38,647 bases of DNA from the IMG/VR virus record IMGVR_UViG_2711768064_000004; one strand, 5' to 3'. The stretch is from a virus (Duplodnaviria; Heunggongvirae; Uroviricota; Caudoviricetes). Of the stretch, positions 3,165-30,565 are shown one piece after another (the first letter of the stretch is position 1; the number at the start of each line of letters is the position of its first letter). The notes under the pieces are model-generated. The model searched no databases. It had not been told where the DNA came from and was given only the letters and a program-made list of their open reading frames with translations. The position numbers and the translations under genes were made by a program.

Positions 3165-4265
3165 TCATTCCATTTCGAAATCATCAATCCTCACTTCAAG
3201 CTCCAGACTGGTCGTAAAACCATTATCCGGGCTTACGGTATGCGTCAGAGTCGTAATGGTCCATTCCGCATCATCTATCGGCTGTTTAAAGCCACTGACT
3301 TTCACTGGCATTTCCGTGTAGAGATCTGCCCGCCCTTCCGCCAGTTGTAGCGAGAATGACGCAACGCCACGTTGCAAGCGTTCCCACTGCATTTTCGCTG
3401 CCCGTTCAGCGTTGCTCCGGTTGGCATAAGTGCGATTAAGTACCAGCACGTTTTCATCCGTACCCACCAGGTAATCGCCCTGCTTCGCTTCCGGCTCTTT
3501 CTTCTGATTCTTAGTTCTGCGCTTACGCTTCACCGTGGTGCTTTCTTTCTTCGCGGGTTCGCGGGTATGCAACCAGCTGGCAATTACGCCCGTGTAGGCT
3601 CCGCGATCTGCCAGGGTAAAGCGGTGACTGTCGCCGTCCTTGCGTGTGATAGTGATCACCGGCAGTGGTTTACCAGTGGCGCTTTTGCCCTGTCCCTGCC
3701 GGATGAATAACAGATTGCCATTTTTCAGCGACGCGATGGCACCGTACTGGCGCGCCAGCCGCATCAGAAAACTGCCGTCACTCTCATTAGTCTGGTCTAT
3801 ATGCTCCACGGGCTTATCCGACAGGTCTTTACCCAGTGCCATCTTCAACTTGTGACGCGCGGCTATTTCCTTCACCACTTCCCCGACAGTGGTCTTGTGC
3901 CACGATTTTTCACGGCGGGTATTCAGCGTTTCCCTAAAATCAGCACTTCGCGCCCGGATAGTCAGGCGATCCGGTGCGCCAGTGTGTTCAATCTCGTCCA
4001 CCGTGAATGCCCCTTTCGGGAAAAGCGGCTGCCCCTTCCAGCCCAGCGCCAGCATGATGACCGCACCACGGCGCGGCAGCACGATTTTTCCGTCGGCGTC
4101 GTCCAGTTCCAGATCAAGCTGGTCTGCTTCAAAGCCCCGATTGTCCGTCAGCGTCAGACTCATCAGGCGGTTATCCAGCACAGTGGTGATATCCTTTCCC
4201 TCAATACTGATGCTGAATGCGGGAGTTTTGTTGCCTTTGTTAAGCAGTTCAGAGCTGAAATTCAC
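3165..4265 (-). CDS. D: tail protein D (late control gene D family)
   Basis: 366-aa ORF resembling P2 gpD; position between U and ogr. Confidence 0.88.
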   Translation of the reverse strand: MNFSSELLNKGNKTPAFSISIEGKDITTVLDNRLMSLTLTDNRGFEADQLDLELDDADGKIVLPRRGAVIMLALGWKGQPLFPKGAFTVDEIEHTGAPDRLTIRARSADFRETLNTRREKSWHKTTVGEVVKEIAARHKLKMALGKDLSDKPVEHIDQTNESDGSFLMRLARQYGAIASLKNGNLLFIRQGQGKSATGKPLPVITITRKDGDSHRFTLADRGAYTGVIASWLHTREPAKKESTTVKRKRRTKNQKKEPEAKQGDYLVGTDENVLVLNRTYANRSNAERAAKMQWERLQRGVASFSLQLAEGRADLYTEMPVKVSGFKQPIDDAEWTITTLTHTVSPDNGFTTSLELEVRIDDFEME

Positions 4266-4747
4266 GACAGCAGCCCTCCCACCGTTTTACTGATATCGCT
4301 TAAGGCAGACGTTGCCGTATCCTGCAAATTATTCAGCTGCGCACTGAGATCACCGAACATATCGGACAGGGATTCATCCACCCGTTTGAGCGACAGGGTG
4401 AACTCAATCCGGCGCGGCATACCATCGCGGAAAAACTCCGCTTTAGTCTGATTCAGTCCCTCAATCACATACATGCCGTAAATCGTGCCGCTGCCTTCAA
4501 TCAGGGGCCATGCTTTTCCCTGTTCTGCCATCTGCTCCAGAGCCAGCAACGACAGCCTGCCGCCCGTTATCTCCGGCATAAGAACACCAGAAAGCGTCAG
4601 CATGTCGTTGTCCGGTCCCAGAAACTGCATGGACGGACGTCGGTTGACCCGGCTGTTTGCCGCATGTCGCCAGCTGCGTTGATACTGCAGTTCCTGATAC
4701 GGCACAGTGCGCAGCATAAACACGTACAATCCCAGCACCATCATCAT
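4262..4747 (-). CDS. U: tail protein U
   Basis: 161-aa ORF resembling P2 gpU; stop overlaps D start (coupled). Confidence 0.85.
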   Translation of the reverse strand: MMMVLGLYVFMLRTVPYQELQYQRSWRHAANSRVNRRPSMQFLGPDNDMLTLSGVLMPEITGGRLSLLALEQMAEQGKAWPLIEGSGTIYGMYVIEGLNQTKAEFFRDGMPRRIEFTLSLKRVDESLSDMFGDLSAQLNNLQDTATSALSDISKTVGGLLS

Positions 4748-7700
4748 GCGTCGTATCCCCCCTGATCGCTGTAGTTACTCCTGGCTTTTGCCTTCAGCCT
4801 GCGTTCACGTTCATCAAGCTGGCGGGCCACCTCCCGCGCAATATCCTGCGCACTTTGTCCTGGCTGCGTCTGAATGATGATCTGCGTCGGTGCCTCAATC
4901 CGTTGAACGGGCGGCACAGTGGCTGCACGACTCACCATCGCTTCGCCGCCTTTCGAGGGAAGTGCCAAAGGATGCAACGGTGGAAGCTCTGCAGGCGCGG
5001 CAGCAACGCCCATCATTCCGGCAACAACGGCAGCCAGTAAAGCTGTATTTCTCCGGCTGGTCACATTTGCCGGGCCGTTAACAATTTCCGGCCCGTTTTC
5101 ACCGACGATGCCAAACTGCCCGCGCGGGATATAGCCGCCGCTGTCATACATCCCCGCAAAGCCATATCCCCATGACGGAAAACCACCCGATGGCATCATC
5201 ACTTTACCGTCTGCATTCACCGTCGCAGGTTGCTGACGCGTCACGCTTTCCGGCAGTTTCGCCTTTGCGGCCTCTTTACTGACAATGCCGAGTTTTTCCA
5301 GCAACCAGGATACGCCGGATTTCAGGGAGTCCAGCGGATGCATGACCATATTCAGCCCTTCCGCCAGTGCCTCCCCGAATCGTCGCCCCATTGCCGCTGC
5401 GCTCTGCAGTTCGGCAGAAGTCGACTTAACGGGCGTCAGCAAATCAGTAAACCAGCCCCACAGCGCCTGCACTTTGTCGCCAATCCACTGGAACACAGGC
5501 TTAAGTGGTTCGAATGCGGCACTGATGGGTCCTGCCGCCGCTTTGAATCCTTCCACCACGCCACCGAGAAATGCGGTGATGGGTTGCCAGTATTTCCAGA
5601 CAACCAGCGCCACGCCCGCCAGTGCAGTAACCACAAGACCTATCGGACTGAGCAGAGCACCTGACAGACCAGATACGGCATACAGGGCAACGCGCAGCAT
5701 CGCCAGTGGACCAGATGCCAGTACTCGCAGCACCGTGCCTGCGGCGGCCAGTCCACCGCGCAGTACCGCCAAAGGATTCATAAACATCACAGCAACAGCA
5801 CGTAAACCGGATAATCCAGACCGGAACAGTGCAACCGGCGCACCTGCTACAGTTTTCAGGACATTCCCCGTCAGTGATGCCGTGCGACGCAAAGACGACA
5901 ACGGAGCAGTAAGTAAACCCGCTGCGTTGCCCGATGAAGCAAGCCCGCGTCGCAGCAGTGCCAGTGGAGCGCCAGCTAACCAGGACAACGCGCTGCTGGT
6001 TCGTGTTACTGCTGCCGTAACGGAAGGTAACGTTTTGATACCCAGCACAGAGAATCCCAGACGGATGACTGCCAGCGGCCCCAGCACTGCAGCCAGCGCC
6101 ACCGCTAAGGTGCCGAGGCCTACGGTAACAGCAGCCACAACAGCCGCTACTTTCATCAGTGTGCCTGTCAGTTCCGGGTTAGCTTCCACCCAGCGGCGCA
6201 ACGCCCCCGTGATGCTTTTCACCGTGTACAGAATATCCATCAGCGGCTGGCGCAGCGTTTCGCCCAGGCTGCTGAAGGTGTTCTGCGCTCCGGTTTTGAC
6301 CAGCAACCACTGAGCAGAAAGTGAGTCTTTGTTGATGTCGGATTCTTTCTGCATGGAACCGAGCGCATCATTGCCCGCTGTCAGTTTTAGCTGGCGCTGC
6401 AGTTCCGGAAGGTTGTTTGCCAGTTTCGCCGCGTCATCACCAAACTCTTTACCAAACAACATGGTCATGGCAGACAGACGCTTGTCCTGCGGCAGTGCGT
6501 TCACCTTCTCCAGCACACGCTGGATAGTTCCCATCGCATCCTTCGTCATCTGCTTTTCAATCACTTCAGGATTGAGTTTCAGCAGATTCATCCCTTCAAA
6601 GAAACTCTTGCTTTGCATGGTGGCAATGGACAATTCACGCACCATCGCGTTTGCTGCACTGGCTGCAACCTCCGGCGCAGCGCCCAGTGTCAGAAAGGTG
6701 GAACCCAGTGCCGCCGCTTTACGATAATCCAGACGGTCAGCCACACCGCCCAGACGTTGCATGACATCAATGATGTCCGCCCCTTTCGACATGGCGTTAT
6801 CATCCAGATAGTTCAGCGCATCGCCGAGCTGTTCAATATTGCGGGTAGGTATTTTGTAGAGCTGGGCGATTTTCCCCAGACTTTCTGACAGTTCATCCGC
6901 TGGCAGCTCAAAGGCTGTTGCCGCCTTTGCTGCCGTACTGGCGAAGGCCAGCAGGTCACGTTTCTGGTCTTCCCAGCTGTCGTCAGGGTTTGCGACGTTC
7001 ATGCGCGCACCACCTTCAACCAGTGCAGCGAAGTCCACCGCACCGTTTTCCATCGGCAACTGTTCGCTGGCAGCCTTGATGGCATCCTGCATTTCATAAA
7101 AACGTGCAGTGCGGTTGCCATTATCGTCACGCAGACCATTGACCTGCTTTGCCACACCTTTCATGGCATCTTCCATGCTGGTATAGCTTTTTACTGCCGC
7201 CATCACTGGCGTCCCCATTGCCAGCCCTGCAGCCGTGGTGGTGGCTCCGGCTCCTGCGATGCGATCGCGCACCTCCAGCGAACGGGCATAACTGGCACGC
7301 GCTGCATTCATCCTGCGCTGAGCTTCCCCCAGTCGCTTCAGCCGCGCCTCCTGTTTCAACAGTTCCTGGTTATAACGTGATGTTTCACGGGCTAAACGGG
7401 CAGTTGCTCCCGCATCATCTTTCGCAGAAATTCCCGCCCGGTACAGTTCTGCACGCACAAGCGCCGTTTGCTTCTGCAAATATTTTTGTTGTTCTTCCAG
7501 ACGTTGGACTGCCAGCGTTTGCCGACCTAAAGCCACAAGGTGCCGTTGTGATGGTTGTTCGATCGACTCCAGCTCAGAGCTAAGCAAATTAGCCTTCTGT
7601 CTGGCATAGTTCAGCCTGTCGCCTAACTTCTTGTTATCGGCCTGCAGCTTGCGAAATTTTTCCAGGCTGTTACCCGCCTGATTGAGTTGCTTTAATGCGT

Positions 7701-8829: not shown

Positions 8830-10002
8830 TTACGCGCTGACCTGGCTGGCGAAATTCACCAGGTACTGATCGGTGATGCGCTGGCGCAGCATCAGATTTT
8901 CAAGTGGCGGCACTGGCGTGTAGTCGTAGTCGATCGTGAGTTTCCCGGCTTTCAGAGTGTCTTTGTCGTTCACCGACTCGTCCAGCCAGCAATCACCACC
9001 AATGAGATACCCCTGACTGACCAGGCTGCGCATTTTGGCGCGGATACCTTCGATAATGTCGCGAGCCAGCGACGGATTCAGCGGTTTGTCTACCGCCCAC
9101 ATGTGCGCTTCTGCCATCGTGTCCGTCAGTACCTGCGCGGTTCGGGTGTAGTTTTCGAAGGCAAAGAGCGGATCATCGCTCAGACAGCGGGAACCCCAGA
9201 AGCGGAAACCGTCTTTGCGGATAAGCGTGGTAACGTCGTTCTGGTTAAGCAGACCTGCATCGGTTGCCGGGTCCTGCAGATCCCAGAACACATCAGCAGA
9301 AATTCCGGTGACACCGTTCACGCCCACGTTGGACAGGCTTTTGTGCCACCCGGTCTGCTCATCAATTTTGGCGCGCAGACCGAGCGCACGAGCGGTGGCA
9401 TATGCCGTTGCTTCGGCATTCAGCACCGTGTCCCAGCCAGTAAAGTCAGGCCAGATCAGCATCCCTTCGCGCTGGCTGAAGTTTTCGCGGTAAGTGATCG
9501 CCTCCTGCACTGTCTTGCAGCCATACGCTGACAGGTAAGCAAACCCACGCAGGCTTTGCGCCACGCTCAGCAACTCAGTCGCAACGGCTTTGTTATCGTG
9601 GCCTGGCACGCCGAGAATGCGCGGTTTAACGCCGAGCTGTGACTGTGCAGATAACAGAGCTTTCATGCCTGTTTTTTTACCTTCAGCAGTCACTGCGCCG
9701 ATGATATTGGTCGTGGTTTCTTCTTCCGTTTCCCCCTGCGGCACACGCACAACAACGGTCACGGGTTTTGCCTGGTCAGCGATGGCATCCAGCGAACGGG
9801 CCAGCGTGCCGGACTCACCCGCTTTACCGCTGGCAGTCAGCACATCAGTGATCAGCACGGGTTTATTAAGAGGAAACATTTTTGCATCGGCATCATCGCC
9901 CGTGCAGACCATACCCACGATGGCGGTGCTCACCGTGGTAATGGTTCGGGTGCCTTCGTTGACTTCAACAACGCGCACTCCGTGGTGGTAATCCTGAGCC
10001 AT
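8830..10002 (-). CDS. FI: contractile tail sheath protein FI
   Basis: 390-aa ORF resembling P2 gpFI. Confidence 0.9.
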
Positions 10003-10144: not shown

Positions 10145-10711
10145 TCAGGGCGATTCATTGTTCTCATTCGCCGGAAATTTTCTATAAATGGTAGAAACGC
10201 CCACATCAAAAATCAGTGCAATACGCTGTCTTGATTCTCCGGCCTCGAGTAAACGCCCAATCTGTGCCCACTGTTCGGTGGTCAACTTAGGACGGCGTCC
10301 ACCTACTCTGCCTTTGGCACGAGCTGCAGCCAGCCCTGCCCTGGTACGTTCAACTATCAGTTCGCGTTCCATTTCAGCCAGGGCACCCATGACATGAAAA
10401 AAGAAACGGCCCATTGGGGTGCTGGTATCAATACTGTCAGTCAGGCTTCGGAAATTCACGCCTCGCTGACGCAACTCTTCTATCAGCGTAACAAGATGCC
10501 GCATACTGCGCCCCAACCTGTCCAGCTTCCAGACAACCAGCGTGTCTCCTGCCGATAGTGTCCTGAGCAGTTTTTTCAACCCTGGTCTGTCGGACTTAGT
10601 GCCACTGATTTTATCCTCAAAAATCCGCTCACATCCCGCGCAGTTCAGTGCATTACGTTGCAAATCGGTGTTCTGGTCATTTGTTGACACGCGTACATAG
10701 CCAATAAGCAT
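10145..10711 (-). CDS. site-specific DNA invertase (serine recombinase, Gin/Pin/Cin/Hin family)
   Basis: Start taken at MLIGYVRVSTNDQ (catalytic Ser motif); very high similarity to Mu Gin / e14 Pin across the length as recalled; C-terminal HTH. Confidence 0.92.
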   Translation of the reverse strand: MLIGYVRVSTNDQNTDLQRNALNCAGCERIFEDKISGTKSDRPGLKKLLRTLSAGDTLVVWKLDRLGRSMRHLVTLIEELRQRGVNFRSLTDSIDTSTPMGRFFFHVMGALAEMERELIVERTRAGLAAARAKGRVGGRRPKLTTEQWAQIGRLLEAGESRQRIALIFDVGVSTIYRKFPANENNESP

Positions 10712-10738
10712 GAGCATCCCCCTGAATAAAAACCGGGG

Positions 10739-11365
10739 ATGATGCCAGTTAGCCATTATCTCTGCATTTTCATAAACGTTGGTTTGGGAGAAGGCTCTGC
10801 ATTACCTGTTGGTGTCCCTGTTCCGTGGCCTTCAGCCACTCCGCCAACAGGCTGGCTGAAATGCAATGGTGCGGCTTTTTCTGCTGAAGAATACCCGGAA
10901 CTGGCAAAGGCTTACCCGACAAATAAATTGCCAGATTTACGTGGTGAGTTTATTCGTGGCTGGGATGACGGGCGAGGGATTGATGAGGGGCGCATACTTC
11001 TCAGTTGTCAGAGTTTTGCTTTCCAGGACCATGCGCACGCTCTGCCAACCGGAGTGGGTAATCCGTCAGACCAGATGGAAAGCGATATCTATGCGGTTTT
11101 CAACGATGTACCAGAAATACCCAGTGCGGCCCTGAGTCCATCGTCGTCAGGAACATCATGGGACGCAACCAGTAGGGCAGACAAGGTAATCCTTTATCGC
11201 AAGGACCTTTCACCAACAGGTAATAACAACGCAATAGCGACCGGATTACCACCATTCAGGACTTACAGGGCATCGACCTCAGACGGTGTTACTCATCCGT
11301 CCGTGTACGCATCTGAAACCCGTCCGCGCAACATTGCATTTAACTACATCGTGAGGGCTGCATAA
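10739..11365 (+). CDS. alternative (currently silent) tail-fibre C-terminal variable segment with tail-collar-type receptor-binding domain
   Basis: ORF begins inside the crossover site; real coding part is about 10795-11365, fused to constant H after inversion (junction GLGE shared). Contains a GWLKCNGAAFSAEEYPELAKAY...LPDLRGEFIRGWDDGRG collar-domain signature. Confidence 0.75.
   Translation: MMPVSHYLCIFINVGLGEGSALPVGVPVPWPSATPPTGWLKCNGAAFSAEEYPELAKAYPTNKLPDLRGEFIRGWDDGRGIDEGRILLSCQSFAFQDHAHALPTGVGNPSDQMESDIYAVFNDVPEIPSAALSPSSSGTSWDATSRADKVILYRKDLSPTGNNNAIATGLPPFRTYRASTSDGVTHPSVYASETRPRNIAFNYIVRAA
10767..10794. repeat. invertase crossover site (gix/pix-like), left
   Basis: TTTTCATAAACGTTGGTTTGGGAGAAGG; its reverse complement shares a 15-bp perfect core (CTTCTCCCAAACCAA) plus flanking matches with 12452-12479; resembles gix consensus. 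Confidence 0.75.
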
Positions 11366-11970
11366 TGGCGAAAGCAAAATTAAACAGTGCGTTTATTGCC
11401 ACCGTGGCAGGAGAAATCACTGTGTACAACTACCGGGGCGACACCCGCGAATACATATCCTCATCGGTTGAGTATCTGCCTGTGGGGGTGGGTATTCCTG
11501 CCAATTCCTGTACCGATGCGCCCGGCACACATAAGGCTGGTTATGCAATCTGCCGTTCTGCAGATTTTAACTCATGGGAATATGTGTCAGACCATCGCGG
11601 TGAAATTGTCTATGGCATCGAAACGGGGGAATCAAAAGAAATTACTGTGCCGGGGGATTACCCTGAAAATACGACCACTTTTGCCCCATTAACGCCATAC
11701 GATAAATGGGATGGTGAGAAATGGGTAACAGATACCGAGGCACAGCATAGCGCCGCAGTAGATGCAGCAGAAGTACAGCGCCAGTCTCTGATTGATGCTG
11801 CTATGGCTTCCATCAGTCTGATTCAGCTGAAATTGCAGGCCGGACGTAAACTGACGCAGGCAGAAACAACCCGCCTTAACGCTGTGCTGGATTACATTGA
11901 CGCGGTGACGGCAATAGATACCAGCACCGCGCCTGATATTATTTGGCCTGTATTCCCTGAGACTGATTAA
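11365..11970 (+). CDS. tail fibre assembly protein (lambda Tfa / Mu U family), partner of the silent fibre variant
   Basis: 201-aa ORF with the conserved Tfa C-terminus (TSTAPDIIWPVFPE) and N-terminal similarity to lambda Tfa as recalled; start overlaps stop of the upstream variable segment. Confidence 0.85.
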   Translation: MAKAKLNSAFIATVAGEITVYNYRGDTREYISSSVEYLPVGVGIPANSCTDAPGTHKAGYAICRSADFNSWEYVSDHRGEIVYGIETGESKEITVPGDYPENTTTFAPLTPYDKWDGEKWVTDTEAQHSAAVDAAEVQRQSLIDAAMASISLIQLKLQAGRKLTQAETTRLNAVLDYIDAVTAIDTSTAPDIIWPVFPETD

Positions 11971-12199
11971 CCTCAATCAGTATTGGTTCGCCTTTCTCAT
12001 TAATTGTTAGCTCCATGCCCTGAGGAATTTCTGTCATAGTAAAAAACCAGTTGTCCTCCGGTAATTCAATAGCCCCGGTCACGTCATGAAGACCGGGGAT
12101 TACTTCAGTCAAAGTAACTGGATTAAACAGGCGCACAATAAACCCTCCATGAAAAAGCATTTGATGATGGTCTGCCGTCGTACATCTGGCAGCGGGCAT
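11939..12199 (-). CDS. hypothetical short protein at the tail-fibre-chaperone position of the expressed fibre variant
   Basis: 86-aa ORF downstream of H inside the invertible segment, convergent with the Tfa gene; overlaps H 3' end; start uncertain; no recognisable Tfa motif. Positional inference only. Confidence 0.3.
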   Translation of the reverse strand: MPAARCTTADHHQMLFHGGFIVRLFNPVTLTEVIPGLHDVTGAIELPEDNWFFTMTEIPQGMELTINEKGEPILIEVNQSQGIQAK

Positions 12200-13514
12200 A
12201 AAAGCCGGTATTTGTTACCTGATCATCCACGATCATTGAAACGTGAACATTATTAGGTGTGCTCTCGTAATCCGTTCTTATTCTTTCTGCGATACTGATA
12301 AAACGTGAAAGTTTAGGCAGTGCAATTGGGTAAACGACTTTAGCCAGTCCATTATCATTAGATCCACCGGTTCCAAATACTTCTATTGCACCATCTGACC
12401 AGCGTACCCATGCACCATTGGCATTAGCTCCTCGCTGAATGACATATCTGGCTTCTCCCAAACCAAGGTATGTGAGAAGACCAGCTACATCCTTTCCACT
12501 CAAATTAGTCAGCGTATTGTCCAGCGGTTGTTTACCTGCCAGTGCATTAAGCATTGTCGTGGCAAAGTTCGGGTCATTCCCCAGTGCCGCCGCCAGTTCG
12601 TTCAGTGTATCCAGTGCCGCAGGTGCAGAACCCACCATTCCTGCAATCGCTGATTTCACAAAAGCCGTAGTGGCAATCTGTGTATTATTGACCGACTGCG
12701 CCGCAGTGGGGGCTGTTGGCGTTCCAGTGAGTGCCGGACTCGACAGCGGCGCTTTCAGTGCCAGCGCATTGTTAATGGTGGTACTGAATTTCGGATCATT
12801 GTTAATGGCTACGGCTATTTCTTTCAGCGTGTCCAGCGTGGCTGGCGCACCATTAATAAGAGCCGTCAGTGCCGCCTGAACAAATGCGGTGGTCGCAAGC
12901 TGCGTGGTATTATTCCCCGCCGCTGGCGTTGGCGCTTTGGGGGTTCCGGTAAACGTTGGACTTTCTTTGGGTGCATACTGTGAATGCGGGTCCGGCGCGG
13001 CAAGATGTTTTGCCATCAGGTCATCCACGTACACCTTCAGCTCCAGTGCCTTGTCATCCACATACTTGCGGGTTGCCAGCACTACAGCAGGGTCGATTTT
13101 CAGGGTGATATTGTCCGTGCTGCTGGTAATCAGCACCATGCGCACGGTCTGGGTACGCCCGCTGCCTTCAGCCAGTTGCGGCTTGTAGCTTTCCGGGCAG
13201 TTGCCCACGGCAATCAATGCACCTGATTCATCAAACAGGCCCACTTCACGTATCCACCAACCGCCCTCGTTTTCAGGGATCACCTGTTCAGCAATAATCT
13301 GGCTGCTGTTCTGCGGGTCGATATAGAGCATATTCAACGCAGCCCGGCGTTTCTCATTTACCAGTGCAGTCTGCTTTGCGTCCGGCGTTGGCAATGTTCC
13401 GCCGCCATCGCCCACCGCCATATGGGTAATTTTTAGCGGCACACCGAGCGCGGTGGCGCTGGCAAGTTTCGCCGCGCCAATATCCGTCAGCAGGGTATAA
13501 AATTTTGTGCTCAT
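12123..13514 (-). CDS. H: tail fibre protein H (constant N-terminal part fused to currently expressed variable C-terminus)
   Basis: 463-aa ORF; N-terminal region resembles P2 gpH with collagen-like/Thr-Ala repeats; crossover site at codons 346-354. Confidence 0.9.
   Translation of the reverse strand: MSTKFYTLLTDIGAAKLASATALGVPLKITHMAVGDGGGTLPTPDAKQTALVNEKRRAALNMLYIDPQNSSQIIAEQVIPENEGGWWIREVGLFDESGALIAVGNCPESYKPQLAEGSGRTQTVRMVLITSSTDNITLKIDPAVVLATRKYVDDKALELKVYVDDLMAKHLAAPDPHSQYAPKESPTFTGTPKAPTPAAGNNTTQLATTAFVQAALTALINGAPATLDTLKEIAVAINNDPKFSTTINNALALKAPLSSPALTGTPTAPTAAQSVNNTQIATTAFVKSAIAGMVGSAPAALDTLNELAAALGNDPNFATTMLNALAGKQPLDNTLTNLSGKDVAGLLTYLGLGEARYVIQRGANANGAWVRWSDGAIEVFGTGGSNDNGLAKVVYPIALPKLSRFISIAERIRTDYESTPNNVHVSMIVDDQVTNTGFYARCQMYDGRPSSNAFSWRVYCAPV
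12452..12479. repeat. invertase crossover site (gix/pix-like), right, inside gene H
   Basis: CTTCTCCCAAACCAAGGTATGTGAGAAG in inverted orientation relative to 10767-10794; encodes LLTYLGLGE of H (residues 346-354). Confidence 0.75.
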
Positions 13515-15938: not shown

Positions 15939-15985
15939 GGCACACAACTTACAAAAATATTATTAGGAAAATAACTTAAGACAGT

Positions 15986-16003
15986 TGTGCCATTGCCGGC
16001 ACA
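15986..16003. promoter_or_regulatory. perfect dyad TGTGCC-N6-GGCACA (TGT-N12-ACA): candidate Ogr/B site of the V operon promoter, or terminator stem for the upstream cargo gene
   Basis: Read directly; centred only about 57 nt upstream of the V start, so assignment as late promoter element is tentative. Confidence 0.4.
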
Positions 16004-16016
16004 ACTAAAACAAGAT

Positions 16017-17225
16017 TTATTGAGTTAAATCAGTTACTATGGGGCCTATTTCAGTAAAATTATCAATCCATATAACATTAACACCAAAAGAGTTAGCATC
16101 AATTTCTTCAAATTTATGTACAGTATCTAATAAAGAACGGGCAACATTGTCTATATCGTCGACTAGCCCGTCATTCAAATCTTGACGTGAACCTTTTAGA
16201 ATTTTATTTATAACATCATCTTTTGAGTGTCGACATTTTATTAAGTAATGAGGTTTAGAATCATTACCCCTTAACTTTTTAGCAGCATCAAGCAGACGTC
16301 TTAAATTTGGATCAGTAAAGGAATGCCCTATAAACAAACAATTATTGTCTTTGAATTTATTCAACTGAACCATATTACTCCAGTGATATAAATCCATATA
16401 TTGCCGATGATAACTTTCATCCGATAAAACTAGGCTGTCATCACTATCAATCTTACCATTTAAGGGAAGATATCCATGAACATGATATATTGGCAACTCA
16501 TCTTTTTTTGCATGCTGCCCAGTTTTATATATAACCTTAAATTTAATACCAACATCTGCGTTTTGTAATGTTTGCTCTAGTATGTCGTCATAATTATATG
16601 TTATGACAGAATCTAACCCCGGAGCCTTCCCCGCAGAAATACATAATTTCTTTATCGCCTTAAGCGTTTGACTCTCGGTGCTATCATAAAATTGATATAG
16701 CACTTTCTGAATTTCTTTCTCAAGAGGAGTGTTAGCACTTTCAAAATGTAACTTTAAATATCTAGCCGCAATCAAAGCATTTGGCCCGAACACTTGATTA
16801 AATAATGTCGCAACAACTTGCTGATTTTCATTAGTATCTTGTAACGCTCTAGCAAGCAACCTCCTTAATAATTCATCCCATGTAGGTATTTTATAATCCA
16901 AAGAAATTCCAGCGCCTAATACAAGCACAAGATTTTCCTCTTTGAAATTACCCTTCAGGTTCTTTAATATAGTAGTTCTATTAGCTTGAACTGGTGCTTT
17001 CAACTTAGCATCAAGAGATTTAATTATATCTAAATATAAATTCTTACCGAGTACCTCATTAATATATTTAGAAATACTTCCAAAACTGTTATCTCCCCAT
17101 ACCACCGTACCAGAGGTGCTCTTAGAAAGGATTTCATCCGAGCCACTTCCATTCATATTTGCAGATGAATTATTTTCTGTTTCTGATTTTACTTGTTTAT
17201 TGATATCGTTATTTTTTTTCATCAA
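16017..17225 (-). CDS. SIR2-like (SIR2_2 / DHS-like NAD-binding) domain protein, standalone; candidate anti-phage NADase
   Basis: 402-aa ORF in an AT-rich insert between S and V; motifs LVLVLGAGIS...PTWDELL, VITYNYDD, PIYHVHGYLP, CLFIGHSFTDPNL match the SIR2-like family pattern as recalled; low-complexity N-terminus; GGAGAG SD 8 nt upstream of ATG. Confidence 0.75.
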   Translation of the reverse strand: MMKKNNDINKQVKSETENNSSANMNGSGSDEILSKSTSGTVVWGDNSFGSISKYINEVLGKNLYLDIIKSLDAKLKAPVQANRTTILKNLKGNFKEENLVLVLGAGISLDYKIPTWDELLRRLLARALQDTNENQQVVATLFNQVFGPNALIAARYLKLHFESANTPLEKEIQKVLYQFYDSTESQTLKAIKKLCISAGKAPGLDSVITYNYDDILEQTLQNADVGIKFKVIYKTGQHAKKDELPIYHVHGYLPLNGKIDSDDSLVLSDESYHRQYMDLYHWSNMVQLNKFKDNNCLFIGHSFTDPNLRRLLDAAKKLRGNDSKPHYLIKCRHSKDDVINKILKGSRQDLNDGLVDDIDNVARSLLDTVHKFEEIDANSFGVNVIWIDNFTEIGPIVTDLTQ

Positions 17226-17294
17226 TCAAACTCTCCATACTATTTATAACAGAGCCAATATGATGTTATAAAAACCCACAAAAAACAAGACATA

Positions 17295-17741
17295 TCAACT
17301 AGTTAGATAACGAAGTAAAATTATACTAATAGCATCGTTACTCTCAGTGCAGAAGCCTAATAGACGTCGCTCTGTATAACGTATTTCTGGCCCCTTATAT
17401 CTAACTCGATCACGCAGGCCATAATGGTGAACGCGGGCAATGCGCTGCACCTTATCTTCAAACTGCACACTGACAGAGTCGGCGTTGGCGGCAGTTTTCA
17501 GGTATTTTGTGGTGCGCAGCTTTGCAAACATCTGACGTTTGATGCACCCCTTTTTACTGCGTGCTGTTACCCGTCGAGGTTCATAGCTGCTGCCATCAGG
17601 GTTGCGCTGCATCCTGATATTCTGCTGCTGTGTCCGGCGCAGTTCCTGCGCCAGCTGGCGCATCATGCGGCTTCTTGCGGCTGGTTCCAGATTCGCCAGC
17701 AAAGCACTCAGCCAGTCGTCCACCTTCTGCAGTTCAGCCAC
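17295..17741 (-). CDS. S: tail completion protein S
   Basis: 148-aa ORF resembling P2 gpS; last ~20 codons are AT-rich and may derive from the cargo insertion. Confidence 0.85.
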   Translation of the reverse strand: MAELQKVDDWLSALLANLEPAARSRMMRQLAQELRRTQQQNIRMQRNPDGSSYEPRRVTARSKKGCIKRQMFAKLRTTKYLKTAANADSVSVQFEDKVQRIARVHHYGLRDRVRYKGPEIRYTERRLLGFCTESNDAISIILLRYLTS

Positions 17742-25011: not shown

Positions 25012-26054
25012 TGAGTGAACCCGAAGCCTTAACCAGCTCAACGCCAACAGAAGCTACGGCGCCTAAAAACGCAGGCGTAACTGCCGAGGCTTTCAGCTTT
25101 GGTGACCCGATCCCGGTGCTGGATCGCCGCGAGCTGCTGGACTATGTGGAATGCGTACAGATGGACAGATGGTATGAGCCGCCAGTAAGCTTTGACGGGC
25201 TGGCGCGAACCTACCGCGCCGCTGTGCATCACAGCTCACCGATTGCTGTTAAGCGTGACATTCTCAGCAGTACCTACATTCCGCACCGCCTGCTCAGCCA
25301 GCAGGCTTTTGCCCGTTTCGTCCAGGACTATCTGGTGTTCGGTAACGCCTATCTGGAAAAGCGCACCAACCGGCTCGGCGGCGTGCTCTCGCTGGAGCCA
25401 GCACTGGCGAAGTACACACGGCGAGGCGTGGACCTCGACACCTACTGGTTTATGCAGTATGGCCTAACCACGCAGCCCTATGAATTCACGCAGGGTAACA
25501 TCTTTCATTTACTGGAGCCGGATATTAATCAGGAGATTTACGGGCTGCCCGGCTATCTTTCCGCCATTCCATCAACCCTGCTCAACGAGTCCGCAACGCT
25601 GTTCCGCCGGAAGTATTACATCAACGGCAGCCATGCGGGTTTCATCATGTACATGACCGACGCAGCACAGAACCAGGAGGACGTGAACAATATCCGCCAG
25701 GCAATGAAAAGCGCCAAAGGGCCGGGCAACTTCCGTAACCTGTTTATGTATTCGCCCAACGGCAAAAAAGACGGTATCCAGATCATCCCGCTGTCGGAAG
25801 TTGCGGCAAAAGATGAGTTTCTGAACATCAAGAACGTGAGCCGCGATGACATGATGGCAGCGCACCGCGTTCCGCCGCAGATGATGGGCATAATCCCCAA
25901 CAATACTGGCGGTTTTGGTGATGTGGAGAAAGCCAGCCGCGTGTTTGTACGAAATGAATTAATACCGCTTCAAGAAAGGATTAAAGAACTCAATGAATGG
26001 TTAGGGGATGAAGTTATTAGATTTGCGAAATATACACTCGACGACATAAGCTAA
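25008..26054 (+). CDS. Q: portal protein Q
   Basis: 348-aa ORF resembling P2 gpQ; coupled to P (ATGA overlap); last ~30 codons AT-rich. Confidence 0.9.
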   Translation: MMSEPEALTSSTPTEATAPKNAGVTAEAFSFGDPIPVLDRRELLDYVECVQMDRWYEPPVSFDGLARTYRAAVHHSSPIAVKRDILSSTYIPHRLLSQQAFARFVQDYLVFGNAYLEKRTNRLGGVLSLEPALAKYTRRGVDLDTYWFMQYGLTTQPYEFTQGNIFHLLEPDINQEIYGLPGYLSAIPSTLLNESATLFRRKYYINGSHAGFIMYMTDAAQNQEDVNNIRQAMKSAKGPGNFRNLFMYSPNGKKDGIQIIPLSEVAAKDEFLNIKNVSRDDMMAAHRVPPQMMGIIPNNTGGFGDVEKASRVFVRNELIPLQERIKELNEWLGDEVIRFAKYTLDDIS

Positions 26055-26069
26055 TTTTTTTATAAAATA

Positions 26070-26096
26070 TGGTGTCATCATATAACGATGACACCA
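26070..26096. terminator. hairpin terminator between convergent Q and the cargo operon
   Basis: Perfect 10-bp stem TGGTGTCATC / GATGACACCA with 7-nt loop; A/T-rich runs on the Q side serve as the U-tract for the minus-strand operon. Confidence 0.55.
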
Positions 26097-26102
26097 TCAC
26101 CT

Positions 26103-26798
26103 CTAAAACTTATCAATTTCCATACATGAAATAGCATCATTGAAAATCGAAAAATGCTCATCAGGAACCACTGCAGAAGCCCCACTGGTTAATTCAAAAC
26201 TAATCTTTGAACCAAGGTAAAACCCTCCAGCTTTTATTTTATCGAGTTTGAATTCACTATCCCCAACAAAAATCTTCAAATCATGCAAAGCATCGCCACT
26301 AGAATTCAATTCCAAACATGCTCTTGTTTTTTCAGTAACAGGAAGATTTGACACCTTCACTTTTGAAATGCCAAACACCTTTACGCCGAAATTTTCTCGA
26401 ATGACCCTCATGAAAGCTTTAAGATCTACGGTTAAATTTCCATAAGCAACATTTAATCCTTCGGCCTGAGATAAAAAATCGATAAAAGGTTTAACTGTTT
26501 TTGGAGGGTTGTAAAAAGTTAACAAACATATCTTATTGCTGAGGATTTGGATAGAAAAACTAATCTGATCAAATACAACCCTTTCGAATTCCAGCACCTC
26601 ACCGAATGGATCGGCAATTGGCTCTAAGACAACAGATTTTTTATTGAAAGTTGCAGTCATACCATTATGAATGGTTTCATACTTAGTAAAACCAGCACCA
26701 ATAGCATCAGAATAAGGCGTGTTTTTGATAAAATCAAAGACAGCCTCAGGGCTGGTCCTGATTTTTAATCTCATCCACTTCAATCTTAATTGTGACAT
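26103..26798 (-). CDS. hypothetical protein, third gene of cargo operon (no recognisable domain)
   Basis: Start at ATG 26798 with AAGGAG SD 6 nt upstream; 231 aa; AT-rich codon usage unlike flanking phage genes. Confidence 0.7.
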   Translation of the reverse strand: MSQLRLKWMRLKIRTSPEAVFDFIKNTPYSDAIGAGFTKYETIHNGMTATFNKKSVVLEPIADPFGEVLEFERVVFDQISFSIQILSNKICLLTFYNPPKTVKPFIDFLSQAEGLNVAYGNLTVDLKAFMRVIRENFGVKVFGISKVKVSNLPVTEKTRACLELNSSGDALHDLKIFVGDSEFKLDKIKAGGFYLGSKISFELTSGASAVVPDEHFSIFNDAISCMEIDKF

Positions 26799-26817
26799 AG
26801 CCACTCCTTATGATGTA

Positions 26818-27882
26818 TTAGCTGATTTCCATTATAATCGAATAAGCTCTATTTTCAATTAATTTATTAAATCGCTCAAGTTCTCTACCAGAGAGCTTTT
26901 GCGGTTTACTGAAATACTGTCCGTTTGCCTTATATTTTCTGACTCCCTTAACTAAATATGAGAAATTAGTACAATTGAGAGGATCACCAAACTGGGCCTC
27001 AAGCTCAAATATATCTGGATCTGCCAAGTTCTCCTTGACCTTCCATTTTATTTTCCAGATATAGAATCCTCTATCATAAAGATCGCTTAATTCATCAGAT
27101 TTTAGTACACCCTCCCCCTTAAGTGATGCCCTAGACACGTGCACTCCAGTTTCGGTGTTTCCATCTTCAGCCTCTATAGTTTCAGGCTTAGGGTGATATA
27201 CATAAGCATCCGTCACATCCAGTAACTCATAACCATCAAGTGTACGGATTAATTTATCGAAGAATAAAGTTCTAACATCAGCAGATGTATTGTGAGAGAG
27301 AGAAATTTCGTTTAATTTTAAATCAAGGTTACTATTATCCGCTTGCTCGTTCTGAATAGCGCTGATATGCCCCAGTAAAAGCCCCTCGTAATCTTCAAGA
27401 TTTTCATTATCTGGACGGCGGATACTGTAACCATTAGTAAGAGGCTCAATTTCAATTAACGCTTCTTTATTAATAGCCTGTTTGAAATCACTTTTGCCAT
27501 AATTAGTCGAAAGATACCTAATATTAATCAGAACTCGCGACCCATCCACGATTATTTTACAATAATCATCCTGCTCGGTAATTTCTTTCTTAAGTTTTTC
27601 TGCCGCGTCTATAATACCTTTCTTATCTATGTCAGTCTCAATTCTTACACATGTAATTTTTTCGGTCCTTGTCTGACCACCTAACAGGGTTGCAATTTTT
27701 TGATGCTCGTAATAATCATGAGTCATTCGAGAATAGTTTCTTGCTAATTCTTTTCGAGGAGTTTTTTTACATATGATCGTTCCTCTCTCTAAGAAAAGGT
27801 CTTGAATTTCATTTATGGTAATTTGCTTTTGGTTTAAAGCATCATACAAAGCTTTATCAGTTACGCTGTGAATATTTTTCAT
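26818..27882 (-). CDS. hypothetical protein, second gene of cargo operon (no recognisable domain)
   Basis: Start at ATG 27882 forming ATGA overlap with stop of the upstream gene; GGGAG SD; 354 aa. Confidence 0.7.
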   Translation of the reverse strand: MKNIHSVTDKALYDALNQKQITINEIQDLFLERGTIICKKTPRKELARNYSRMTHDYYEHQKIATLLGGQTRTEKITCVRIETDIDKKGIIDAAEKLKKEITEQDDYCKIIVDGSRVLINIRYLSTNYGKSDFKQAINKEALIEIEPLTNGYSIRRPDNENLEDYEGLLLGHISAIQNEQADNSNLDLKLNEISLSHNTSADVRTLFFDKLIRTLDGYELLDVTDAYVYHPKPETIEAEDGNTETGVHVSRASLKGEGVLKSDELSDLYDRGFYIWKIKWKVKENLADPDIFELEAQFGDPLNCTNFSYLVKGVRKYKANGQYFSKPQKLSGRELERFNKLIENRAYSIIMEIS

Positions 27883-28943
27883 TTCGGCTCCCAAGAAATA
27901 ACTTCTGCAGAAAAGAATTCTTTTACTGTAGACACAACTTTAACGTCTAAATCTTCAAGCCTCTTTTTAGCTTCTTCATCTAATCCATACTCATGTGCAT
28001 ATTTTTCAACTCCCCGTTGAAAATGTGAGAGAATCCTCTCATCTTTTTCTCGATATGCCAGCCTTATCCTAATTTTATTTATACCATCAAGAATTTGATA
28101 ATTTGACAAAATATCCAACAAATAAAAGAATTCATTGTCGCTATTACCTTTTTTGTTGTAATACACAACAAACCCTTCTGGATAAACTTCCTCCTCAATA
28201 CCTTTAGCTCTGTTAAATTTATAAACAGCACCATGTTTGATTATCATGAAAGGTGATGACAAGACTTCTATAGTAGCTGGAAGATATTTTTCAGTCACAG
28301 CAACCTTATGAAAAGTCAATTGAGGGTAATAGAATCCATAGTCTTCATCAGGAAACTCTTTCTTAGCAATCAAATCATTCATATCATTCGTTATTGCCAA
28401 CATATAATTAATCAGAAACGGATCGATTATATGAATTTGCTGACCTGCTGATAAAGGAATCTTTTCTAAGTTGACAGCCTTATCTCTTCTTCCTTTAGCG
28501 GGTTTAGGAGGATTAAAAAAATCATAAAAATCATGCTGCAACTGATTATCATGATTAAAAACAAATAATAAACCGCGAACTTCACAGTCAATTTGAGAAA
28601 AATTATATTTTTCTGACCACTCAGGACTATAGCGAGCACATTCAATAGTTTTTGCTAATGACTCCAATGCAGATTCTATTTTAGAAGCATTTATTGAGCC
28701 TGCTTTATAACTTTTTAAATCAGTATTTAAATAAATGACTTTGTTTAAATATGGGTCTTTATAACTAAATACAACATCTACAGGATGCGTGTGCTTCTGC
28801 TTCTTACCTTCAGGCTTATGTTTAGCCTCATCATCACAAAGGAAATCTCGGTCGCAGGGGCCATGCTGCTGCCACTTAAATCGACTCAGTAGATCCTCAG
28901 ATATGCGTTTCGCCAAATCTTCAATAGGGCCGTTCTCTGCCAT
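27879..28943 (-). CDS. hypothetical protein, first gene of cargo operon; weak PD-(D/E)xK-like pattern
   Basis: 354-aa ORF with AAGGAA SD; N-terminal region has E...HPVD-x17-DLK spacing compatible with, but not proving, a restriction-endonuclease-like fold. Confidence 0.7.
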   Translation of the reverse strand: MAENGPIEDLAKRISEDLLSRFKWQQHGPCDRDFLCDDEAKHKPEGKKQKHTHPVDVVFSYKDPYLNKVIYLNTDLKSYKAGSINASKIESALESLAKTIECARYSPEWSEKYNFSQIDCEVRGLLFVFNHDNQLQHDFYDFFNPPKPAKGRRDKAVNLEKIPLSAGQQIHIIDPFLINYMLAITNDMNDLIAKKEFPDEDYGFYYPQLTFHKVAVTEKYLPATIEVLSSPFMIIKHGAVYKFNRAKGIEEEVYPEGFVVYYNKKGNSDNEFFYLLDILSNYQILDGINKIRIRLAYREKDERILSHFQRGVEKYAHEYGLDEEAKKRLEDLDVKVVSTVKEFFSAEVISWEPK

Positions 28944-29044
28944 TTGATTTCCTTACTTTTTTGCAGACAATTCTAATTGAAAGATAAAGGTAAGCTTTTT
29001 TGCTTGCAAGGACTTTGGACCTAACGTGAGACGCTGAGCGCGCG

Positions 29045-29063
29045 CTCGTATCCCCGCCACGCC
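29045..29063. other. candidate cos (cohesive-end) site of the prophage
   Basis: Minus-strand reading GGCGTGGCGGGGATACGAG matches the first 13 nt of the 186/P2-type 19-nt cohesive end as recalled (GGCGTGGCGGGGA...); located in a GC-rich island between Q-side and A-side cargo, where cos sits in P2-family prophages. Confidence 0.55.
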
Positions 29064-29334
29064 TGCCCGCTTTATATAGTGGTTTTCATGCACCTGCATG
29101 ACATAAGCAAAAGCCCGCCATACCTAGCAGGCCCCAACTAGAGCGATCCTTAAACGATCATGCGGATTCATGCAGTATAGACATGCAGTAGTTACGCCAA
29201 ACCGTGTAGCGAGGCCACCTGCTAAAAATGTTCACGGAGTAACATTTGATCTCCACTGCAAAAAATGAAACTTTCGCTTTCACCAAATATAACAAGAGGT
29301 AATCTTTGGTGTTTTACACAGCAAACGGTGAGCC

Positions 29335-29916
29335 ATGAAAGTCAACATAAAACAGATTGTTGGAAATTGGGAATTAGGTCTTGCGATGGATAAACACAGC
29401 ATCCGCAGCATTCCCATTGGTTACGATGAGTGGGGACATATGCGGTTTGAGACGGAGCGTACTGAGGTAGGCGAATCTCTTTTCCAGCTTAAATACCGTG
29501 ACGATTGGTCACAAGTTAAGCCTTTAGCCCAATGCCTAGCAGAGCATGCCTTTCCTCATTTCAGCAATGTCGGGTTTATCGTTCCAATGGCTGCATCTAA
29601 TCAGCGTGCACGCCAGCCAGTGACCGAAATAGCTCAGGAACTAGCCAAACTAGTTGGCAAACCATGCTTCGATGACCTCTTGTTGAAAGCCCCCGGCGGG
29701 GCATCGCTAAAGAACCTGAATACAAAAGAAGAGAAAATCACGGCGCTGGGTAATTCGTTCTCTGTTAATGACAGTATTGAGAATAATGGCAACTGGAATG
29801 TCCTTATCATTGACGACCTCTACCATACAGGCGCATCTATGGAGGCTGCTTGTGCTGTGCTAAACGATTATACTAAGGTTAGAAGCATTTATGTTGCAGC
29901 TTTGACTTGGAGATAG
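29335..29916 (+). CDS. phosphoribosyltransferase (PRTase)-like domain protein
   Basis: 193 aa; C-terminal VLIIDDLYHTGASMEAA matches the type I PRTase PRPP-binding signature; no zinc-finger cysteines (not ComF-like). Confidence 0.75.
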   Translation: MKVNIKQIVGNWELGLAMDKHSIRSIPIGYDEWGHMRFETERTEVGESLFQLKYRDDWSQVKPLAQCLAEHAFPHFSNVGFIVPMAASNQRARQPVTEIAQELAKLVGKPCFDDLLLKAPGGASLKNLNTKEEKITALGNSFSVNDSIENNGNWNVLIIDDLYHTGASMEAACAVLNDYTKVRSIYVAALTWR

Positions 29917-29918
29917 TG

Positions 29919-30476
29919 ATGACTACGGTATTTGTTGCTGGTTCAATAACCATCAAAAACCTTGACACACTCATCGTGGATCGTCTGAAAAAAATTGTTA
30001 ACTCGCGTTTTCGTATTGTAGTTGGTGATGCCAATGGTGTTGATTCATCTGTTCAACGCGTATTGCTAGAACTTGGATGTGAAAAAGCCACAGTATTCAG
30101 TAGCTCAGAAAAACCGCGCAATAATCTTGGCTCATGGCCTGTACATGTAGTAAGTACTAGCCATGCAGCCGGCACTCGCGCGTTTTTCACTGCGAAAGAT
30201 CTCAAAATGGCAGAAGAAGCCGATTATGGATTAATGGTTTGGGATACGAAGAGCACGGGTACTCTGAGTAACGTGATTGAGCTTCTTAAACGTAAAAAAT
30301 ACTCTGTCGTTTTTGTTAATAAATACAAAAAGTTCTTTATTATCAAATCTCCAGAGCACCTTGACGCTTTGATTAACTGCATGTCACCAGCCTCTTTGGA
30401 AAAAGCTGATGAAAAGATCAGATTGCGCGAAAAAATCAACCAACTAAAAAACGAGCAAATCCAGATGTTTATGTGA
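29919..30476 (+). CDS. SLOG-superfamily (DprA/Smf- or LOG-like Rossmann) domain protein
   Basis: Start at ATG 29919, 2 nt after the PRTase stop, GGAGA SD; motif VFVAGS...RIVVGDANGVDSSVQRVLLELG resembles the DprA/Smf Gly-rich nucleotide-binding loop. Family assignment from motif only. Confidence 0.6.
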   Translation: MTTVFVAGSITIKNLDTLIVDRLKKIVNSRFRIVVGDANGVDSSVQRVLLELGCEKATVFSSSEKPRNNLGSWPVHVVSTSHAAGTRAFFTAKDLKMAEEADYGLMVWDTKSTGTLSNVIELLKRKKYSVVFVNKYKKFFIIKSPEHLDALINCMSPASLEKADEKIRLREKINQLKNEQIQMFM

Positions 30477-30565
30477 AATTCTTTGATGATAACACTAACG
30501 CCTCGCCCTGCTCGTTGTTCAACCTTGCTGGCTTCAGAATCAAGTACTGATGCCAGCAACGTTTC

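Follow-up and report, generated by a model that had tools for sequence, protein, structure and literature searches.

Does the tail-fibre locus of a P2-like prophage act as an inversion switch, and is the shorter of its two alternative arms a working module or the remnant of a longer one? These questions are raised by the IMG/VR virus record IMGVR_UViG_2711768064_000004 (Caudoviricetes), whose whole stretch of 38,647 nucleotides is referred to here as the window. A sequence-only reading of the window had proposed a Gin/Pin-type invertase beside an invertible tail-fibre segment with unequal arms, and had left it undecided whether the expressed arm had suffered a deletion or used an unusual short chaperone. 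Very probably the locus is an active switch of the tail-fibre operon in a P2-like (Peduovirus) Escherichia coli prophage, operated by site-specific inversion of the Pin type. Host-range switches of this kind are well known, this one occurs in dozens of public genomes, and only one element of it is uncharacterised: orf65, a gene of 65 amino acids (aa) directly following the expressed tip of the tail fibre H.

Inversion of the segment in complete genomes

For the orientation survey, the window form of the locus and an in silico flipped form (3.6 kb each) were searched against 5426 complete E. coli genomes. The window orientation was found in 20 of these as one collinear piece covering at least 80%, and the flipped orientation in 36, with a best identity of 99.0%. 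Several pairs of records look like sister isolates, and in the two pairs that were compared at every base the element lies in opposite orientations. Over 9601 bp, the only difference between strains 64 and 61 (Switzerland, same coordinates) is a 1658-bp block; over 9526 bp, DG341-1 and DG342-2 (both 5,067,659 bp) differ only in a 1583-bp block. In each pair the block is the exact reverse complement of its counterpart, with 0 mismatches, and is bounded on both sides by identical site cores; the left site is identical to that of the window, and the same 15-bp core lies at both breakpoints. An exact-inversion difference of this kind between sister isolates is the footprint of site-specific inversion. 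The detection of both orientations, for which the sequence-only reading had proposed polymerase chain reaction (PCR) or long reads from cultures, is thus provided by complete E. coli genomes and by sister isolates differing by an exact inversion. Inversion has also been demonstrated by sequencing and PCR in e14 and in P2-like prophages of enteropathogenic E. coli (EPEC) (PMC4272514).

When positions 10781-12464 of the window were inverted in silico, H stayed in frame and was lengthened from 463 to 544 aa, its 109-aa C-terminus being replaced by the predicted 190-aa collar-domain variant. The crossover site lies inside the fibre open reading frame (ORF) and both H products are open, as in the Mu G, P1 C and e14 P segments; both H forms are annotated in the sister genomes by the Prokaryotic Genome Annotation Pipeline (PGAP). 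Behind each tip lies a partner gene of its own; the two tip-and-partner sets point towards each other and their 3' ends overlap by 32 nt, so that inversion exchanges the partner gene together with the tip, as had been expected. The lengths of the silent arm (1178 bp) and the expressed arm (514 bp) agree with the inequality of about 1.2 kb to about 0.5 kb described earlier.

Three draft contigs of 1253, 1679 and 1600 bp (L014, L020 and L022, from Intestinirhabdus, Pantoea and Xenorhabdus) consist of the invertible segment alone; they begin and end inside crossover-site cores and have terminal inverted repeats of 12-15 nt. Many matches to orf65 relatives are likewise located on contigs of 1.2-1.7 kb. 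Contigs of this kind would be expected if both orientations were present in the reads and the segment was assembled alone, which is suggestive only. In E. coli W and related records (NC_017664, NC_017635, NC_017660, CP026085 and others), the copy of the element carries an IS3-family insertion; in these copies the short arm is matched over only 343 of 514 nt, and the records are found in both orientations.

Crossover sites, invertase and candidate enhancer

A repeat finder returned a single long inverted pair in the region (10767-10793 and 12452-12478). Within it lie two 26-bp imperfectly palindromic sites with matching central dinucleotides, as is typical of the invertase family (Table 1). Read on the other strand, the right site is TTCTCACATACC-TT-GGTTTGGGAGAA; it equals the left site at 22 of 26 positions, including a 15-bp identical core and the central dinucleotide. 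Since the central AA of the right site complements the TT of the left site, the two are in inverted orientation. When reverse-complemented, the left site equals the e14 pix site adjoining pinE at every position. A scan of the 38.6-kb window with a generic palindromic invertase-site consensus (at most 3 mismatches) found only these 2 sites, and none was found in 100 dinucleotide-preserving shuffles; the same scoring recovered exactly the 2 known sites each in e14, P1 and Mu. The inverted crossover sites of the sequence-only reading (10767-10794 and 12452-12479, with a 15-bp identical core) are therefore confirmed by both the repeat finder and the site scan. The same is true of the position of the right site in H: residues 346-354 (LLTYLGLGE) are encoded at 12453-12479 and are followed by 109 aa. 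A multi-site shufflon, as found in one EPEC prophage, was rejected since the window has only two sites.

The minus strand of the window carries the P2 late tail genes V, W, J, I and H, the switch segment and then the sheath gene FI, in the same order as in P2. The sheath gene ends at 10002, and the serine recombinase (10145-10711) is placed between it and H. In phage P2, fun(Z) occupies the interval between G and FI, so the invertase does sit at the Z/fun position, as had been noted from the sequence. Up to ...YLGLGE, the constant part of H has 87% identity to the H protein in a related element; beyond that point the similarity ends.

The assignment of the recombinase as a Gin/Pin-type invertase was upheld by Pfam, by PHROG and by its identity to e14 PinE (86%), P1 Cin (79%) and Mu Gin (75%). 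Residues 1-183 align without gaps to the Mu Gin structure (PDB 3UJ3, E 1.8e-92), covering an N-terminal catalytic domain (YVRVSTNDQ, with Ser9 aligned to Gin) and a C-terminal helix-turn-helix, and the gamma-delta and Tn3 resolvases scored far lower against the protein than Gin. A 203-aa ATG-initiated ORF was rejected as the invertase gene, the alignment to Gin beginning at MLIGYVRVST. The stretches RPGLKKLLR and QIGRLL align with RPGLKRALK and QAGRLL of the Fis-dependent Gin; their correspondence to Hin numbering is our assumption. Basic residues of helix B (Hin 47, 48 and 51) and Gln151/Arg154/Leu155 form the Fis/enhancer contacts, and the helix-B residues and the Q-x-x-R-L motif are reported to be specific to Fis-dependent invertases (PMC3798978). 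Judged by the Gin alignment, these contact residues are present in the invertase of the window.

The recombinational enhancers of gin, hin and cin (and pinE) lie in the 5' coding DNA of the invertase genes. In the window, the region upstream of the invertase and its 5' coding DNA align closely with pinE, and the candidate enhancer holds the 15-mer GTGTCAACAAATGAC (10676-10690), which fits G-N13-C with an A/T-rich centre. It also has ATTTG and TAATG tracts, similar to those known from the Hin enhancer, where they are located between the Fis sites (PMC3798978). These features suggest a candidate enhancer in the 5' part of the invertase gene, and the switch may depend on Fis.

In the region, 8 terminator-like sites were found by a consensus scan against 3.3 expected. 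The hairpin and T-run at 10731-10750 are placed where the late transcript would exit the segment, and beside them a CCCC...GGGGG stretch, read by eye, overlaps the ribosome-binding region of the invertase.

Table 1. Coordinates of the features of the switch locus in the window.
Feature	Position	Strand	Basis and remarks
Serine DNA invertase (Pin/Gin/Cin family), 188 aa, catalytic Ser9	10145..10711	-	Pfam Resolvase 2.9e-53, HTH_7 1.7e-15; PHROG 125 DNA invertase 9.8e-101
Candidate Fis-dependent recombinational enhancer (inferred)	10627..10690	-	Inside 5' coding region of invertase gene; DNA highly conserved with pinE, cin, gin
Hairpin and T-run, possible terminator of late V-H transcript (weak)	10731..10750	-	Consensus scan; between left crossover site and invertase start
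Left crossover site, 26 bp	10767..10792	.	TTTTCATAAACG TT GGTTTGGGAGAA; central TT at 10779-10780
Alternative (silent) C-terminus of H with tail-collar domain, 190 aa, e14 StfE type	10793..11365	+	Pfam Collar 1.8e-15; PHROG 523 tail collar fibre
TfaE-type tail fibre assembly protein of 201 aa, partner of silent collar tip	11365..11970	+	Pfam Caudo_TAP (PF02413) 2.1e-30; 86% identity to e14 TfaE
orf65, 65-aa partner gene of expressed tip	11939..12136	-	GTG start at 12136, GGAGG 6 nt upstream; overlaps H end by 14 nt
H, tail fibre, 463 aa	12123-13514	-	N-terminus = Pfam phage tail-collar fibre domain (Phage_tail_fib) 1.2e-65
Expressed H C-terminus, 109 aa, probable gp53/R-pyocin-foot-like beta-sandwich tip	12123..12452	-	Pfam Gp53-like_C (PF21882), sub-threshold
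Right crossover site, 26 bp	12453..12478	.	TTCTCCCAAACC AA GGTATGTGAGAA; inside H codons 346-354; central AA at 12465-12466
Constant N-terminal part of H, residues 1-345, outside invertible segment	12479..13514	-	Pfam Phage_tail_fib N-terminal 1.2e-65

The two alternative fibre tips

In the tip encoded by the long, silent arm, the first 60 aa, which form the collar domain, and the last 16 aa are identical to e14 StfE, and the middle is divergent. The full-length Tfa (tail fibre assembly protein) reported for this arm is present as described, with a clear Caudo_TAP match (Table 1). A promoter scan inside the segment, silent arm included, gave nothing above chance.

For the tip encoded by the short, expressed arm, the match to Gp53-like_C covers profile positions 2-80 of 84 and reaches 19.0 bits, below the cut-off of 24.9. 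A search of PDB sequences with this tip returned no relevant match. An AlphaFold (AF2) model from a shallow alignment is all-beta and of low confidence (predicted local distance difference test, pLDDT, 55.6). With this model, the top five Foldseek matches in PDB (6CT8, 6CL6, 4MTM, 6CXB and 6CL5, E 0.004-0.04) were the C-terminal regions of R2/R1 pyocin fibres and of AP22 gp53 (4MTM, template modelling score 0.56), and the tip probably has a gp53/R-pyocin-foot-like fold. The guanine-plus-cytosine (GC) content is 43.6% in the short arm, 50.8% in the other arm and 54.8% in the constant part of H; this low GC content marks the short arm as a distinct imported module, not a trimmed copy of the other arm.

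orf65 as a selected gene

The GTG start of orf65 is also the start annotated by PGAP (hypothetical protein WP_001440573). An 86-aa ORF of uncertain start had been described here by the sequence-only reading; the ORF proved to be real, but its length is 65 aa when read from this GTG, and the start is conserved in 12 loci. No Pfam family matched orf65, even at E up to 10, and PHROG 5400 (unknown function) was matched over the first 66 positions of its 145-position profile.

Among 5.8 billion proteins, 123 relatives of orf65 were found, in Escherichia, Enterobacter, Salmonella, Citrobacter, Hafnia, Xenorhabdus, Erwinia and others (at least eight genera), with identities down to about 60%. If evident mis-starts are set aside, their lengths are 57-66 aa, and every one opens with MRLFNP. 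Searches with tblastn gave 11 further loci with an orf65 homologue (one in phage S164, one in an e14-like prophage of E. coli and nine in six other genera), and in all of them orf65 directly follows a tip homologous to that of the window (36-94% identity). With the window included, all 12 copies have retained a GGAG box and start with ATG or GTG. Over codons 6-55, the pairwise ratio of nonsynonymous to synonymous substitution rates (dN/dS) is 0.06-0.21, with a median of 0.13, and orf65 is under purifying selection. The short arm is present in 117 of the 5426 E. coli genomes, in 106 of them at full length. One carrier is an e14-like prophage, in which the arm is joined, again at ...LGLGE, to a short fibre of 210 aa.

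The spread of the family, the synteny, the dN/dS ratio, the full-length arms and the low GC content indicate that orf65 is a gene and not a recent remnant. The short arm and orf65 are therefore an old, mobile and selected module, not the product of a recent deletion. The deletion suggested for the expressed arm by the sequence-only reading is unsupported as a recent event, the arm being intact both in E. coli and in other genera. A frameshift fusion of H to orf65 was also considered and rejected, as orf65 has its own start and Shine-Dalgarno sequence in every locus and the H stop lies upstream of the orf65 start in one.

In the e14-like prophage of E. coli Res13-Sevr-PER07-33 (L009, 5483-6438), the tip-plus-orf65 module faces an arm with an 88-aa partner gene, which has the Tfa C-terminal motif and is 73% identical to residues 178-199 of Tfa. 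A short partner gene can therefore also be of a kind other than orf65.

Relation of orf65 to Tfa chaperones

In TfaMu and Pam3 gp25, a variable N-terminal domain binds the fibre, and conserved C-terminal helices serve trimerisation and assembly (PMC9608196). Two proteins connect orf65 to this family, gene_1 of Cronobacter phage JK004 (128 aa) and P0237 (131 aa). Their first 58 residues match the orf65 family (hhalign probability 98.1% and 99.1%, respectively), and both continue into a Caudo_TAP domain (1.4e-20 and 3.2e-20) that matches the C-terminal part of Mu Tfa in 5YVQ. The two-domain protein of JK004 directly follows a gp53-like cassette, the start of which (RFMVIKGENANGWYEIYSDG) resembles the tip of the window. 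A PDB search with the orf65-family profile matched the Tfa C-terminal domain only (5YVQ_B, via the JK004 row), and nothing in that search matched a Tfa N-domain.

orf65 ends (at residues 57-66 across the family) where the conserved C-terminal helical domain would begin. The Caudo_TAP helical domain with its ...RVD...P.WP motif was not found in orf65, which is for this reason not filed as a Caudo_TAP member, and a BLASTP comparison of orf65 with the 145-aa chaperone of a related plasmid-borne element gave no match. With bona fide Tfa members, orf65 shares the N-terminal domain and the gene position. On a contig of Candidatus Erwinia dacicola the order is H, orf65 and sheath gene; there is a single crossover site, and neither an invertase nor a further Tfa gene is present. 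This suggests that orf65 may be able to act as the sole partner of such a fibre.

By these homologies, orf65 can be described as a stand-alone homologue of the fibre-binding N-terminal domain of Tfa. It most likely binds its cognate fibre tip, aiding its folding or remaining on it, and would do so without the C-terminal trimerising domain. The unusual short chaperone of the sequence-only reading thus holds as to its shortness, in the form of a 65-aa single domain instead of 86 aa. Tentatively, a shade short of what we would call probable, orf65 may represent an uncharacterised class of minimal single-domain fibre partners, in which the Tfa N-domain acts alone and perhaps remains attached to the tip as a component of the adhesin. 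In that case, the C-terminal Tfa domain would be dispensable for this class of fibre tips, and the tip with its 65-aa partner would be a very compact portable receptor-binding cassette (about 0.5 kb), moving between P2-like and e14-like backbones.

Some further loci and matches were recorded. The giant repeat proteins P0222 (2709 aa, 15 weak stretches) and P0229 (1373 aa) were not used as relatives of orf65. Annotated with DUF285 and Spiralin, they gave 5-15 weak stretches against orf65 with summed E of 2e-32 and 1e-11, which are probably compositional or summed weak matches. In Xenorhabdus khoisanae (L018, 4207-6426), H and orf65 are followed by a convergent silent arm (ORFs of 176 aa and 110 aa), bounded at 3644 and 5121 by crossover-like sites; between that arm and the sheath gene a 275-aa ORF is located, and no invertase was found there by tblastn. 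In the 94-kb phage JK004 (L004, 1987-5116), a fibre gene carrying a single crossover-like site (2888) precedes four same-strand ORFs (3248-3601, 3640-3999, 4412-4750 and 4784-5116). The fibre C-terminus and the 3640-3999 cassette have sub-threshold Gp53-like_C matches, and the first two ORFs start with the junction peptide GE, so this locus could be a multi-cassette array of fibre tips.

Proposed mechanism and alternative explanations

For the Fis dependence, the expression logic, the change of receptor and the role of orf65, we infer the following scheme. By analogy with the Hin/Gin family, invertase dimers would bind the two 26-bp sites and, together with the Fis-bound enhancer, form an invertasome; strand exchange at the central TT/AA dinucleotide would then invert 1686 bp. 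Because of the layout of the operon, in which the late V-W-J-I-H transcript would enter the segment from the H side, only the arm beside the constant part of H is expected to be expressed. In the window orientation, H (463 aa) would end in the small gp53/R-pyocin-foot-like tip and be translationally coupled to orf65. After a flip, H (544 aa) would end in the StfE-type collar tip and be followed by the TfaE-type 201-aa chaperone. The two types of virion would be expected to differ in receptor. The switching of host range, which the sequence-only reading had also predicted, would be expected from the precedent of Mu, P1 and carotovoricin.

If the short arm were damaged, a deletion having taken most of the chaperone gene, fibres made in the window orientation would be defective and only the flipped form would be infectious. 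The two arms do measure 514 bp and 1178 bp, orf65 is without the C-terminal Caudo_TAP domain that its 128-aa and 131-aa relatives possess, its 3' end extends 32 nt into the antisense of the other Tfa gene, and its last 8 or so residues vary among loci. Damage is nevertheless very unlikely, given that the 57-66-aa form has been kept in at least eight genera at 60-70% identity with its start and Shine-Dalgarno sequence conserved, that dN/dS is about 0.13 and the arm is at full length in 106 E. coli genomes, and that about one third of the assembled genomes are in the window orientation, with the low GC content of the arm marking a distinct imported module. If orf65 was truncated at all, the truncation is ancient and the product has been under selection since. 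It is also conceivable, though unlikely, that orf65 is a real gene and no partner of the fibre, for example a lysogenic-conversion or exclusion factor hitch-hiking behind a gp53-like tip that folds unaided. Such a role would suit a protein with no annotated function (PHROG 5400 unknown, no Pfam) and without the Tfa domain thought to drive trimerisation (PMC9608196). It is countered by the strict adjacency of orf65 to one type of tip in all 11 further loci, across P2-like and e14-like backbones and with the start-stop coupling conserved, and by the homology of its N-domain to proteins that are Tfa by their C-terminal domain and hold the same position; moreover, as a gene of the late operon, orf65 would not be expressed in the lysogen.

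Two further explanations concern the switch as a whole. In e14, PinQ-driven inversion is reported to create StfE2, which blocks the adsorption of phage T2 (PMC12529663), and a switch mainly serving the host, with one orientation making a fibre-derived protective protein in the lysogen, would agree with the StfE/TfaE type of the long arm and with the fact that the silent arm in either orientation is an ATG-started ORF near the invertase promoter region, annotated as a gene by PGAP. We consider this highly improbable here, as the prophage looks complete and P2-like, being collinear with a near-identical element having ogr and all late genes, and as H lies in the late operon and no promoter above chance was found for the silent arm. 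A fossil locus, in which sites and invertase are present and switching has been lost in this genome, is given equally little credence: the single assembled sequence shows one orientation, and a G in the left site and an A in the right site depart from the AAACC..GGTTT core, yet the invertase ORF is intact with all conserved motifs, and the same site core, with a left site identical to that of the window, lies at the breakpoints of the sister-isolate inversions.

An active switch with orf65 as the fibre partner in its short arm remains our preferred explanation, and the following points weigh against it. The elements of the two sister pairs are 97.1% and 91.5% identical to that of the window, not identical. 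The enhancer is a candidate, with two putative Fis 15-mers spaced 49 bp apart. The fold of the tip is based on a sub-threshold Pfam match and a low-confidence model, and the single-sequence model of orf65 is poor (pLDDT 50.8), too weak for comparison with the fold of the TfaMu N-domain. By hhalign, no similarity was detectable between orf65 and the N-domain of e14 TfaP. Finally, Ca. Erwinia dacicola is an insect symbiont, in which the arrangement of H and orf65 could be decaying.

Neighbouring cargo genes

Apart from the switch, two cargo regions were observed in the window. At 15942-17354, between V and the next late genes, an ORF on the minus strand (16017-17225) encodes a 402-aa SIR2-like protein (Pfam SIR2_2 1.4e-21; PADLOC LmuA/ThsA-like). 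The near-identical prophage of strain Combat2C1 has a gene with a Toll/interleukin-1 receptor (TIR) domain in the same slot (L023, 26007-26822), which looks like a swappable site for defence cargo. A second island (25974-30494) is absent from the related prophage. Three of its ORFs (26103-28943, minus strand) match the PADLOC models Hp3, Hp2 and Hp1, down to 1.4e-66, and a plus-strand pair follows (29335-29916 and 29907-30476), the first member of which resembles ShosT/PsyrT toxins.

Significance and comparison with known systems

The switch itself adds little to what is known, as fibre switching is textbook knowledge for Mu, P1 and e14 and has been shown in P2-like prophages and tailocins. 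What can be added is that public complete genomes hold near-direct evidence of active inversion, in the form of sister isolates differing only by the flip, and that unequal arms are normal here and no indication of decay. The short arm is a compact receptor-binding cassette that moves horizontally, and in every annotation its partner gene is called hypothetical. A tip-plus-partner cassette of 0.5 kb is of possible interest for retargeting phages or R-type tailocins, and orf65 offers a natural test of the need for the conserved C-terminal domain of Tfa in fibre assembly.

The P segment of e14 with PinE (E. coli K-12) resembles the locus in its invertase, in the identical invertase-proximal site and in the invertase reading away from the segment. 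Alignment to e14 StfE and TfaE, a comparison of the kind proposed by the sequence-only reading, assigned the long arm to the StfE/TfaE type. One arm is of the same type in both elements (TfaE 86%, StfE collar domain identical over the first 60 aa). Both elements also have arms of unequal length (TfaP of 137 aa against TfaE of 200 aa in e14) and convergent partner genes that overlap at their 3' ends. Unlike the window, which holds a complete P2-like myovirus, e14 is a defective lambdoid prophage with a Mu-like tail module, and its second arm carries StfP and the two-domain TfaP, whereas the window has a different tip and a 65-aa single-domain partner.

With the Mu G (Gin) and P1 C (Cin) segments the locus shares a constant fibre N-terminus outside the segment and two alternative C-termini inside, each with its own assembly gene, as well as 26-bp sites and a small serine invertase of the Fis-dependent type (75% Gin, 79% Cin). 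The Mu and P1 segments differ in being about 3 kb and about 4.2 kb long, with arms of roughly equal length and full-length U and U' chaperones, and in P1, cin reads towards the segment and the cix site overlaps the cin 3' end.

The P2-like prophages of EPEC E2348/69 and the carotovoricin Ein locus have the same backbone and the switch in the same position. Inversion of the EPEC P2-like prophage was shown experimentally (PMC4272514), and invertase-driven fibre switching is described as altering the killing specificity of the P2-type tailocin carotovoricin (Nguyen 2001, as cited in PMC13195805). One EPEC locus has three inverted repeats and four variants, unlike the two sites of the window.

Among the two-domain Tfa proteins (Mu TfaMu/U in 5YVQ, Pam3 gp25 and JK004 gene_1), the gene directly follows the fibre gene, as orf65 does, and JK004 gene_1 and P0237 have an N-terminal domain homologous to orf65. 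It is the N-domain that binds the fibre tip in TfaMu and gp25 (PMC9608196), and the homology of orf65 is to the N-domain of JK004 gene_1. Unlike these proteins, orf65 is without the C-terminal helical Caudo_TAP domain, and no similarity was detected to the N-domains of Mu Tfa or e14 TfaP.

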